NCBI GenBank assembly: GCA_000991405.1
Contig: LBRL01000001.1
Coordinates: forward strand, 315,200 to 379,199
Length of the DNA stretch: 64,000 bases
Source of the DNA: Candidatus Nomurabacteria bacterium GW2011_GWD2_36_14
GTDB lineage: Bacteria > Patescibacteriota > Minisyncoccia > Phycocordibacterales > UBA9973
Reading direction: 5' to 3'
Of this stretch, positions 31,250-32,570 are shown one piece after another. Position 1 is the stretch's first letter, and each line of letters begins with the position of its first letter. The notes under the pieces were generated by a model. The model did not search any database. It had not been told where the DNA came from and worked only from the letters and a program-made list of their open reading frames with translations. Made by a program: the position numbers and the translations under genes.

Positions 31250-31321
31250 GGCCTGGTAGCCAAGTGGTAAGGCAGAGATCTGCAAAATCTCTATGCGGCG
31301 GTTCAATTCCGCCCCAGGCCT
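31250..31321 (+). tRNA. tRNA-Cys (anticodon GCA)
   Basis: Acceptor GGCCTGG/CCAGGCC, anticodon loop CTGCAAA, T-arm GGCGGTTCAATTCCGCC, discriminator T. Confidence 0.85.
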
Positions 31322-31441
31322 CAGCAGGGAGTATGCAAACTACTTTGCATACGTGGCGGAATTGAAAGACTTTTCATTATTTGTTTAATAACAAATTGAA
31401 AAGTACCCGCGACCGTTGGGCGAAATTCCGCCCCAGGCCTC
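31322..31441 (+). mobile_element. Miniature element 3' of tRNA-Cys. It ends with a 16-bp direct repeat of the tRNA 3' end (attccgccccaggcct) and may be an att-like remnant.
   Basis: Perfect hairpin GTATGCAAActaCTTTGCATAC (31331-52), then GAAAGACTT, then GTACCCGCG (31403-11), then a copy of tRNA-Cys 31305-31320 at 31425-31440. Confidence 0.45.
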
Positions 31442-31547: not shown

Positions 31548-31631
31548 GCCGGGGTGGCGAAATTGGTAGACGCACTGCTCTTAGGAAGCAGCGAGAGTAA
31601 TCTCATGAAAGTTCAAGTCTTTTCCCCGGCA
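31548..31631 (+). tRNA. tRNA-Leu (anticodon TAG), class II
   Basis: Acceptor GCCGGGG/CCCCGGC, anticodon loop CTTAGGA, long variable arm, discriminator A. Confidence 0.85.
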
Positions 31632-31835
31632 CATATTAAAAAACATTATGAAAATAGTGTTTTTTATATGATGTCGGGGAGTAAGCAAACTTCTTTGCTT
31701 ACGTAGAAGACTTGCACAGCGGAGTCATATTTTCTTACCAAAGAAAATAGATGAGCTGGTGACCAGACAAAACTTTTTGACGAAAAAGTTTTAGTCGAGG
31801 TCAAGAAGCGTACCCGCGGTCTTTTCCCCGGCACC
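31632..31835 (+). mobile_element. Second miniature element, homologous to the one after tRNA-Cys. It ends with a 15-bp direct repeat of the tRNA-Leu 3' end (gtcttttccccggca).
   Basis: Hairpin GTAAGCAAActtCTTTGCTTAC (31681-702), then GAAGACTT, then GTACCCGCG (31810-18), then a copy of tRNA-Leu 31617-31631 at 31819-31833. The repeat overlaps the 3' end of the LAGLIDADG ORF. Confidence 0.45.
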
Positions 31836-32483
31836 AAGTTTTTTGGATTGCTTCAAAATTTTAAAGGCTATATTTCTTTTCCTAGATAAAGAAGTATTTT
31901 TACCTTTATATATAAATTGTAAAACTTTTATACTATCTTCTTTTGCAAAAGTTAATGTATAAACTGATGATTCTTTAGGTAGACAAATTGAACCACCTTT
32001 AACTTCAAATAATTCAATACAAGATTTTAATATCCACTCTAGAAATAATTTACTAGCTGAACAAAGCCTTACCTTGTATTGAGGATGCTTACTTTCCTTA
32101 TGTTTTGAAATTGTAATACTTCCATCTCCATCAATACATCCTCGAAGAAAATCTTTAAAATATTCTTTTGGTATTTTTAATTCATTTATCGTTTTAGATT
32201 TTTTGGGAGTAATTCCTATACTTAATAAAAACTCAAAAAAGTTTTTATCTCCAAATTGTAAAACATAATATTTCTTATCTTTTGATCCACCCCGAGCCTT
32301 TTTGCCAATAAGGTTGTTGATTCCTAAACATTTCTTACAATTTAACAGCATTTCTTCATCTTTTGAAGTAATATGAATATGCCGTAAATCTGGAGATAGA
32401 TTACCATCTGTAGCAATTACTCCTATAACATAAGCAAAATCACCATTCCATTTTATTTTCACATTCCCCTTTCGATATGCCAT
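31791..32483 (-). CDS. LAGLIDADG homing endonuclease (two-motif, monomeric type)
   Basis: Motif 1 VIGVIATDGNL and motif 2 LRGCIDGDGSI, ~105 aa apart. The last ~14 codons are read through the tRNA-Leu 3'-end repeat. Confidence 0.75.
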   Translation of the reverse strand: MAYRKGNVKIKWNGDFAYVIGVIATDGNLSPDLRHIHITSKDEEMLLNCKKCLGINNLIGKKARGGSKDKKYYVLQFGDKNFFEFLLSIGITPKKSKTINELKIPKEYFKDFLRGCIDGDGSITISKHKESKHPQYKVRLCSASKLFLEWILKSCIELFEVKGGSICLPKESSVYTLTFAKEDSIKVLQFIYKGKNTSLSRKRNIAFKILKQSKKLGAGEKTAGTLLDLD

Positions 32484-32570
32484 ACACCCATTATACTAAA
32501 ACATATAGCGTCTGCCAATAAAAATATTAATTATATTTCATTTATGAATGCTTCATGCTAAACTACCCTT

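Follow-up and report, generated by a model that had tools for sequence, protein, structure and literature searches.

A free-standing LAGLIDADG endonuclease gene of a tRNA-Leu-lodged family in a Nomurabacteria genome, and the later mini-element that gave it a new tail

Introduction

Homing endonuclease genes are usually thought to persist in essential genes only inside self-splicing introns or inteins, and free-standing homing endonucleases have been studied mainly in phages. The LAGLIDADG homing endonucleases cleave a DNA site of 14-40 base pairs (bp) and leave 3′ overhangs of 4 nucleotides (nt). Here, we describe a LAGLIDADG endonuclease gene that lies beside a transfer RNA (tRNA)-Leu gene, within a stretch of 64,000 nt from Candidatus Nomurabacteria bacterium GW2011_GWD2_36_14 (contig LBRL01000001.1, positions 315,200 to 379,199 of the forward strand), referred to as the window. 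Judging from sequence comparison, the gene belongs to a large and apparently undescribed family of free-standing, tRNA-abutting endonuclease genes in Paceibacteria of the candidate phyla radiation (CPR); a literature search returned nothing on tRNA-linked LAGLIDADG genes in the CPR. The main features of the locus are as follows.

31791-32483, minus strand: LAGLIDADG endonuclease gene, 230 codons and a TAA stop at 31791-31793 (listing of open reading frames (ORFs), Pfam, AlphaFold2 (AF2), Foldseek, PHROG)
31836-32483, minus strand: conserved core of the protein, residues 1-216, with catalytic Asp26 in motif 1 and Asp120 in motif 2 (24-sequence alignment; ratio of nonsynonymous to synonymous substitution rates, dN/dS)
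32490-32519, minus strand: putative orphan 5′-half remnant of tRNA-Leu, ATTGGCAGACGCTATATGTTTTAGTATAAT (promoter scan, flank conservation, similarity to tRNA-Leu)
31548-31632, plus strand: intact tRNA-Leu(UAG), convergent with the endonuclease gene (ARAGORN; Rfam tRNA model, 54.6 bits)

The Endonuclease Gene and Its Predicted Fold

The ORF starts with an ATG at 32483-32481 (minus strand) and contains the motifs VIGVIATDGNL (residues 19-29, nt 32397-32429) and LRGCIDGDGSI (residues 113-123, nt 32115-32147), in each of which an acidic residue is followed by Gly (VIGVIATD26G and CIDGD120G). An earlier, sequence-only reading of this DNA had taken the ORF for a two-motif LAGLIDADG endonuclease gene and had made homology on profile search the point on which that claim would turn. 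Such homology is present: Pfam LAGLIDADG_3 matches the ORF with E=2.3e-10 (41 bits; cut-off 22.5 bits), LAGLIDADG_1 scores 21.9 bits, slightly under its own cut-off, and PHROG 4645, annotated as “endonuclease,” matches the protein with E=4e-34. The phage relatives are all less than 30% identical and are annotated as homing endonucleases or mobile intron proteins. A search of the PDB by sequence gave chance matches only (E>0.3) and was uninformative, so that a fold search was needed. The AF2 model, built from 24 homologues (mean predicted local distance difference test score (pLDDT) 87.8; predicted template-modelling score (pTM) 0.85), contains the α-β-β-α-β-β-α unit (H-E-E-H-E-E-H) twice, in a pseudo-symmetric tandem fold. 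Foldseek against the PDB returned 114 fold matches with E<=0.001, and the top 50 listed were all LAGLIDADG-fold proteins (enzymes, inteins, a maturase, and WhiA); the best was I-Tsp061I (2dch; E=4.7e-11; template-modelling (TM) scores 0.63/0.70), followed by intein endonuclease domains, I-AniI, bI3 maturase, WhiA, and I-DmoI. Residues D26, D118, G119, D120, and G121, including both catalytic Asp, are invariant in the 24-sequence alignment, and homology among the aligned proteins stops near residue 212-216. By profile, alignment, and model, the ORF is a genuine, intact gene for a monomeric, two-domain endonuclease of the LAGLIDADG_3 type, and cleavage activity is predicted.

The exact protein is also found as a hypothetical protein of Candidatus Nomurabacteria RIFOXYC2_FULL_36_8, and no paralogue of the gene was found in the window. 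The family comprises 1,449 homologous clusters, the named ones nearly all from Paceibacteria or Patescibacteria, with a usual length of 212-216 amino acids (aa). Against ten relatives, dN/dS is 0.06-0.17 where computable (about 0.1), with synonymous sites near saturation, a pattern by which the gene is under purifying selection and selectively maintained.

Residence at the tRNA-Leu Locus

The genomic context was compared in 53 loci from species-representative genomes, found via two conserved peptide patterns. A tRNA-Leu gene lies directly against the 3′ end of the endonuclease gene in 48 of the 53, with the anticodon UAG, or GAG in a deep sister clade; chance adjacency would be well below 1% per gene, assuming roughly one tRNA per 20 kb. 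The sequence-only reading had asked whether homologues are intron- or intein-encoded, free-standing, or tRNA-linked, and the answer is that the family is free-standing and tRNA-linked. In the usual layout, the tRNA-Leu is on the same strand, and the ORF enters it by 9-36 nt and stops there, with recurrent tails (GEWRNW, GE, and RVAELV, each followed by the stop) that are the translated tRNA 5′ end. Such a stop codon, 9-36 nt inside the downstream tRNA, can be seen in L006 (4630-4651) and L007. In same-strand loci, a ribonuclease P (RNase P) cut at the tRNA 5′ end would leave a messenger RNA (mRNA) without a stop codon, and one may speculate that this provides a built-in down-regulation via trans-translation.

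The gene order infB, rbfA, and tRNA cluster is common to most loci, and the identity of the endonuclease correlates with that of the neighbouring proteins over 227 locus pairs (r=0.82), the endonuclease being on average 13 points more conserved. This synteny, together with the correlation with the flanks, indicates at the sequence level that the gene is an old resident of the tRNA-Leu locus with mostly vertical inheritance. It is not essential, to judge from relatives in which it is lost or decayed. Whether orthologous loci lack the gene, another question of the sequence-only reading, is settled by two genomes in which it is absent from the same slot. In L122, where rbfA and the cation-efflux gene are 78% and 75% identical to those of the window, the slot holds an unrelated ORF of 226 aa (798-1478) with no Pfam match, and in L143 a deletion joins the tRNA-Leu flank to about codon 132 of the efflux gene (1528-1545). 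Decayed copies occur in L053, which is frameshifted and has no motif 2, and in L045, which has lost the first 58 residues; both are still against tRNA-Leu. The slot between tRNA-Leu and the cation-efflux gene is thus variable in close relatives (L122 and L143), and L143 has a partial extra tRNA-Cys 5′ fragment upstream.

In a neighbour-joining tree, the convergent layout of the window characterises one derived group (the window, L159, L001, L002, L003, and L005), and it occurs in L014 separately from this group. A conceivable cause of the inverted layout in the clade of the window is the acceptor-stem palindrome, with GCCGGGG at both tRNA ends.

The Upstream Flank and a Putative Orphan tRNA-Leu 5′ Half

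Upstream of the gene, a promoter scan found the promoter-like TTGGCA-17-TATAAT, which matches at 11 of 12 positions and ends 6 nt before the ATG; its predicted position implies a leaderless endonuclease mRNA. Directly upstream of the ATG in nearly every locus there is a 30-nt flank, ATTGG(C/T)A(G/T)ACGCTATATGnTTTAGTATAAT, that spans tRNA-Leu from the D-loop to the anticodon loop, as a comparison of the tRNA of the window (ATTGGTAGACGCaCTGCTCTTAGga) with its flank (ATTGGCAGACGCtATATGTTTTAGta) illustrates (z=4.4 against its own tRNA-Leu); in most loci, the tRNA remnant begins at the D-loop. Taken one by one, 13 of 45 flanks show significant similarity to their own tRNA. The most complete case is L028, which keeps the whole 5′ half (23/26 matches from tRNA position 1, z=12.2); this orphan half resembles the window-type tRNA-Leu and not the tRNA of L028 itself (z=0.1), and the Rfam tRNA model gives no match on it, which is not surprising for a half that lacks its pairing partners. 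The GAG-linked clade has CTTGAGGTATAAT in the flank, and the anticodon-like triplet of the flank tracks the neighbouring tRNA (29 TAG/TAG, 4 GAG/GAG, none clearly discordant). A pattern derived from the flank matches 39 of 54 endonuclease loci, and in 748 kb of other loci its only matches are L159, one chance site, and, in the endonuclease-free loci L062 and L141, two genuine tRNA-Leu(UAG) genes. No target-site duplication was found when the first 16 nt of tRNA-Leu were compared with the DNA upstream of the gene (7.19 versus 7.31 mismatches in controls). The upstream flank is best understood as an orphan tRNA-Leu 5′ half that now serves as a promoter; the true trace of an insertion targeted at a tRNA would then be here, upstream of the ATG, and not on the side where the sequence-only reading had placed it.

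Sister Subfamilies at tRNA-Asp and tRNA-Ser

Two further subfamilies abut other tRNA genes, with the following members.

L167:5948-6625 (minus strand), L133, L172:2501-3175, and L173: tRNA-Asp subfamily
L121:6011-7033: tRNA-Ser subfamily, at tRNA-Ser(UGA)
L174:1501-2502 and L175:1501-2502: tRNA-Ser subfamily, at tRNA-Ser(GCU)

The tRNA-Asp subfamily (706 clusters) shares about 32% identity with the window protein; it occupies the space between tRNA-Met and tRNA-Asp(GUC), with its stop codon inside tRNA-Asp. Its tails, CG(R/G)SS(T/A)G or (L/M)R(S/A/P) before the stop, are translated GCGGTCGTAGCTCAACTGGTTAG in 26 of the 28 members fetched, and its upstream flanks contain tRNA-Asp-like pieces, including CCTGTCACG (z 3.0 to 3.9). 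In one member (L172/L173), the anticodon loop of the tRNA-Asp behind the endonuclease gene is interrupted by a group I intron without an ORF (L172:3151-3396, also L173:1915-2160); ARAGORN missed the intron-bearing tRNA-Asp, and Rfam RF00028 scores 49.2 bits on the L172 intron (E=6e-10; gathering score 50 bits). The tRNA-Ser subfamily (254 clusters; 333-345 aa) has an N-terminal helix-turn-helix (HTH) region in addition to LAGLIDADG, and some of its members end in RRSGSSG(LRHRS) before the stop, which is the translated tRNA-Ser 5′ end. As far as these sequences tell, abutting a tRNA is a general habit, in which the Leu and Asp subfamilies are flanked by an orphan half and the Ser subfamily abuts its tRNA alike. 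The earlier statement that free-standing bacterial LAGLIDADG genes are uncommon fails in this phylum: with 1,449, 706, and 254 clusters in the three subfamilies, well over two thousand CPR protein clusters are free-standing, chromosomal, and wedged against specific tRNA genes (Leu, Asp, and Ser).

The Extended Tail of the Reading Frame

The last codons of the window gene overlap a second copy of the tRNA-Leu 3′ end, an exact 16-nt repeat (31617-31632 = 31819-31834) at a spacing of 202 nt. The features concerned are given below.

31818-31835, minus strand: codons 217-222 (GAGEKT), antisense on the displaced original tRNA-Leu 3′ end
31791-31817, minus strand: codons 223-230 (AGTLLDLD; 31794-31817) and the stop (31791-31793), on the 3′ module of a mini-element and not on the tRNA repeat; no homologue has this tail
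31819-31836, plus strand: displaced original tRNA-Leu 3′ end, GTCTTTTCCCCGGCAC followed by CA, still joined to its old flank, the endonuclease gene (alignment with L001)
31633-31818, plus strand: mini-element behind tRNA-Leu; together with the 16-nt duplication, 31633-31834, 202 nt (repeat spacing, empty sites, fold, and family evidence)

Alignment with L159, whose endonuclease is 81% identical to that of the window, and with L001 shows both the gene and tRNA-Leu in place and the 202 nt between them absent. These are empty sites, and the window genome has therefore gained a 202-nt insertion at the tRNA-Leu 3′ end. The tRNA of L001 ends in GGCACCAGT, and the reverse complement of the tRNA end reads GGT GCC GGG GAA AAG ACT TGA, so that the T-loop supplies a stop codon. 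Within the convergent group, the ORFs of L159, L003, and L005 run 17-19 nt into the tRNA 3′ end, with CAGEKT before the stop in L159 (P0006 type) and CARERT in L003 and L005; those of L001 and L002 end 7-10 nt short of it. From these alignments, the ancestral ORF in the clade of the window ended in GAGEKT inside the tRNA-Leu 3′ end, at the T-loop TGA. With the insertion came a 16-nt duplication, and the original tRNA end, with the endonuclease gene attached, was shifted away; the “repeat” beneath the ORF is, on this comparison, that displaced original end. Element sequence replaced the T-loop TGA, and translation consequently runs eight codons further, into AGTLLDLD. Residues 217-230 are predicted to be disordered (pLDDT <50). 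The ORF tail is a by-product of a later, unrelated insertion, not a feature, and is explained without anything exotic.

The sequence-only reading had the last ~14 codons pass through the tRNA repeat, which it placed at 31810-31835. This holds for codons 217-222, antisense on the copy, and not for codons 223-230 and the stop. Its proposal of a C-terminus remodelled by recombination gives way to eight new codons made by insertion, running into the tRNA end being ancestral; and as to how the C-terminal region aligns with homologues, the tail AGTLLDLD is indeed absent from them, but the nearest ones enter a genuine tRNA end with no repeat involved. Similarly, the gene is tied to a tRNA, as had been stated, but not to the duplication, since L159 and L001 have the gene without it.

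The working tRNA-Leu is followed by CATATT, with no encoded CCA, and the displaced copy keeps ACCA as in L001 (31617-31636 versus 31819-31838); the insertion has, by this alignment, removed the encoded CCA end of the functional tRNA-Leu.

Probable Origin of the Locus and Alternative Explanations

The window gene is probably an intact, selected member of a tRNA-Leu-lodged LAGLIDADG family that goes back to an old insertion into a tRNA gene, its tail coming from a later mini-element; the fold, the catalytic residues, the purifying selection, and the promoter-like site form the observed footing of this account. The layout of orphan half, gene, and intact tRNA is what suggests an old insertion footprint, and the insertion would have entered a tRNA-Leu gene in the region of its anticodon arm. 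The 5′ half that it displaced may have been duplicated or brought along, such that a working tRNA survived, and the orphan half would now give the -35 and -10 boxes of a leaderless promoter. In the clade of the window, the cassette is inverted and on the 3′ side of tRNA-Leu, and for this reason the ancestral ORF ended inside the tRNA acceptor and T-arm; in this genome, the 202-nt mini-element later entered the tRNA-Leu 3′ end and gave the new tail. Like LAGLIDADG enzymes in general, the protein would cut an asymmetric DNA site of about 20 bp, leaving 4-nt 3′ overhangs, and its most likely target would be a tRNA-Leu gene without the cassette. The tRNA-like promoter may also serve as an operator bound by the protein. 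Present-day inheritance is mostly vertical, with occasional decay or loss.

Several points weigh against this account. The orphan-half evidence consists of short sequences, 32 of the 45 flanks fall short of significance when each is compared with its own tRNA, the TAG/GAG covariation amounts in essence to a single phylogenetic event, and the flanks of the tRNA-Ser subfamily are not clearly tRNA-like. The 53 loci, picked by two peptide patterns, are not a random sample, and the placing of the same-strand layout as ancestral comes from a neighbour-joining tree that carries no support values. Furthermore, tRNA-Leu sequences of loci with and without the gene show no diagnostic difference and overlap completely (the anticodon arm is the same in L007 and L155, and in L004, L122, and L143), which leaves no evident basis for self-immunity in these sequences if the intact tRNA-Leu is the target. 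The vertical pattern and the high conservation fit a protein useful to the host at least as well as an active selfish element.

The last two points lead to the alternative of a domesticated protein, under which the family would have ceased to be homing endonucleases or never have been such and would be kept for a host function tied to the tRNA operon, such as that of a DNA-binding regulator with the tRNA-like promoter for its operator, an RNA chaperone, or a maturase-like factor. We regard it as unlikely, yet it has much in its favour: mostly vertical inheritance at a syntenic locus (r=0.82), a protein 13 points more conserved than its neighbours, a dN/dS of about 0.1 with saturated synonymous sites, a promoter spacer extraordinarily conserved across orders, no tRNA allele difference able to give immunity, and fold neighbours that include WhiA and bI3 maturase. 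Against this, both catalytic Asp-Gly pairs are invariant, the tRNA-Leu subfamily has no extra HTH domain, and the gene is dispensable and decaying (L122, L143, L053, and L045); furthermore, three subfamilies at three or four tRNAs, with an orphan half for Leu and Asp, look like repeated insertion and less like a single recruitment to a function. If the protein is domesticated, it would represent a new host use of the LAGLIDADG fold in minimal-genome organisms.

A more ambitious version of the old-insertion account, to which we give somewhat less credence than to domestication, is that the cassette of orphan 5′ half, LAGLIDADG gene, and intact tRNA represents an intron-less, self-propagating invasion of an essential tRNA gene, with the mini-elements as a second, non-autonomous class. 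A naive tRNA gene would be cut by the endonuclease in its anticodon-arm region, and repair from a cassette copy, in which the orphan half would be the left homology arm and the tRNA the right arm, would bring in the nuclease gene along with a new 5′ half and rebuild the tRNA, the orphan half then acting as promoter and operator. The mini-elements would share the logic of replacing what is displaced, at the other tRNA end, via a T-loop-to-acceptor duplicate and antisense segments. Should the enzymes have kept the ability to cut tRNA genes, the cassette would offer a novel way to insert into an essential gene, and the family would hold many natural meganucleases with related, distinct targets.

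The proposal of the sequence-only reading, that the endonuclease gene arrived as cargo of a tRNA-Leu 3′-end insertion marked by the 16-nt repeat and had its C-terminus remodelled by recombination, is very improbable. The gene does lie directly beyond the repeat, and its last codons cross it. However, in L159 and L001, which lack both the element and the repeat, the gene adjoins tRNA-Leu all the same. In the window, it is not part of the duplicated segment and lies on the old-flank side; the GAGEKT tail is common to relatives without the element, no protein gene is associated with the element family in the 118 loci listed, and elements occur behind 32 tRNA species without the endonuclease. Least credible of all is an ORF that forms part of a group I intron or intein: the closest structures are intron- and intein-encoded, NCBIfam gives weak matches on intein-bearing archaeal proteins (none other, and far below cut-offs), and the relative L172 adjoins a tRNA-Asp with a group I intron, but no Rfam intron model matches within 1 kb on either side of the ORF (E up to 10), the ORF has its own promoter-like site with a conserved N-terminal Met six bases past the -10 box and no extein, and the flanking tRNAs are intact.

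Comparison With Known Systems

The closest documented counterpart is T4 SegB, a free-standing GIY-YIG homing endonuclease encoded among the clustered tRNA genes of T4; its site is reported to include the tRNA T-psi-C motif (PMC2330249). By analogy, it may be the best functional model of a tRNA-targeted, intron-less homing gene: in both cases, a free-standing endonuclease gene lies among tRNA genes, and SegB is described there as inherited with the neighbouring tRNA genes (PMC2330249). The nuclease family differs (GIY-YIG, not LAGLIDADG), SegB resides in a phage genome, where co-infection allows homing, whereas the present genes are on a bacterial chromosome, and the abstract on SegB reports no orphan tRNA half and no ORF ending in a tRNA (PMC2330249). 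Homing of SegB was proven by experiment, and the family of the window is known here from sequence and models. The layout of L172 and L173, in which an endonuclease gene is followed by a tRNA-Asp with an ORF-less anticodon-loop group I intron, is reminiscent of collaborative homing, in which the free-standing F-CphI lies beside an ORF-less psbA intron in cyanophage S-PM2 (PMC6083498); F-CphI belongs to another nuclease family, however, and the tRNA-Leu of the window has no intron. The CPR LAGLIDADG genes described so far are found in insertion sequences and group I introns of 16S and 23S ribosomal RNA (rRNA) genes (PMC11270868). They share with the present family the phylum, the nuclease superfamily, and conserved RNA genes as a niche, but they are intron-borne, and the text of that study mentions neither tRNA nor free-standing genes (PMC11270868).

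Among structural relatives, the archaeal I-Tsp061I and I-DmoI (PDB 2dch and 2vs7) share with the window protein the monomeric LAGLIDADG fold with two motifs, at about 180-200 residues. Their sequence identity to it is only 16-19%, and they are encoded in rRNA-gene introns, whereas the window gene is free-standing beside a tRNA. WhiA has lost the catalytic acidic residues and carries a C-terminal HTH domain. As a chromosomal, vertically inherited bacterial protein of the LAGLIDADG fold, it is also a fold neighbour of the window protein (PDB 3hyi and 3hyj), which differs in that both catalytic Asp are kept and its 230 aa include no extra domain; domestication of the WhiA type is therefore not seen.

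In phages and genomic islands, integrase-mediated insertion into a tRNA gene restores the displaced part of the tRNA and leaves an orphan partial copy at the far end. Such elements restore the 3′ part by means of a recombinase and an attachment site; here, by contrast, it is a 5′ half that is left orphaned, no recombinase is present, and the element encodes a nuclease.

The tRNA 3′-End Mini-Element Family

The insertion behind tRNA-Leu has a counterpart behind the tRNA-Cys gene of the window, at the following positions.

31250-31322, plus strand: tRNA-Cys(GCA) (ARAGORN, Rfam)
31323-31441, plus strand: second mini-element, of the short class, behind tRNA-Cys (repeats, fold, covariance model 123.7 bits)

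The tRNA-Leu element consists, in this order, of a terminator-like hairpin, GTCGGGG (the complement of the acceptor 3′ strand), a conserved hairpin (31677-31704), AGAAGACTTG (the complement of the T-loop and T-stem), two variable hairpins, and GCGTACCCGCG. The tRNA-Cys element, which is present in L159 and absent in L001, has the conserved hairpin at 31327-31354, then 12 nt that complement the T-arm perfectly (31355-31366), GTACCCGCG at 31403-31411, and an 18-nt copy of the tRNA-Cys 3′ end at 31424-31441. The two copies have in common GTACCCGCG, which lies at 31810-31818 in the tRNA-Leu element, and the hairpin GGGAGTAWGCAAACTWCTTTGCWTACGT, with a compensatory change. In the 64 kb, there are exactly two occurrences of the 28-nt 5′ hairpin module and exactly two of GTACCCGCG, all of them behind a tRNA (0.00 and 0.03 matches, respectively, expected from shuffled sequence). 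The tRNA-Leu element folds with -67.4 kcal/mol (z=-7.2 against shuffles), and the tRNA-Cys element has z=-5.5.

A relaxed hairpin pattern was found in at least 118 metagenome stretches (loci L054-L171) and had 0 matches in viral contigs. Among the matches listed, 83 of 112 distinct copies have a same-strand tRNA within 400 nt upstream, and 32 tRNA species are represented. The segment after the hairpin complements its own tRNA at the T-loop and the 3′ strand of the T-stem (helices of 9.4 nt on average, versus 6.6 +/- 0.2 with other tRNAs), the segment before it complements the acceptor 3′ strand (6.9 versus 5.3 +/- 0.1), and the 3′ terminus of the element is a direct copy of the last 16-19 nt of the tRNA; a 3′-end repeat with at most 2 mismatches in 12 nt is found in 38 of the 83 tRNA-linked copies listed. 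Covariation in the three hairpins of 13 short-class copies (98.9% of cells paired; score 0.371 versus 0.114) was reached by 0 of 500 shuffles, and of the two strands the tRNA-sense one has the better fold in 25 of 38 copies (p=0.0014). The elements have a length of 90-200 nt and contain no ORF, and no recurring protein family (transposase, integrase, or reverse transcriptase) was found near them, the most frequent occurring in 9 of the 118 loci listed. Rfam returned only tRNA matches, both in the window (E limit 10) and in 11 further loci (E limit 1), and a literature search, which included the element sequence, found no paper on the mini-element. These comparisons reveal what is apparently a widespread, structured, and uncatalogued family at tRNA 3′ ends.

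Known classes of mobile element were considered and found no support. As in integrase-type elements, a direct repeat of the tRNA 3′ end stands at both ends (exact repeats of 16 nt and 18 nt), but there is no recombinase gene and no single attachment sequence, and each of the 32 tRNA targets has its own matched sequences. The elements lack the terminal inverted repeats of miniature inverted-repeat transposable elements (MITEs); the guides of IS200/IS605-type ends are far shorter; both guide segments pair to the same strand, with no recombinase, which does not suit an IS110 bridge RNA; and neither core motifs nor an Rfam match of group I or group II introns were found.

The strict hairpin version had 0 matches in the 53 endonuclease loci, and the covariance model found diverged copies in L008, L015, and L040, those in L008 and L015 being behind tRNA-Leu in same-strand endonuclease loci. 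Tandem double copies stand behind one tRNA in L056, L073, and L087, each unit ending in the same tRNA 3′-end copy, which suggests either repeated insertion into a copy or unequal exchange. Variants at L172:3440-3610 and L122:530-655 have a different or compensatorily changed first hairpin and the same 3′ module, GTACTGnnnnTGTAAnnnn, and the family is thus broader than the search pattern.

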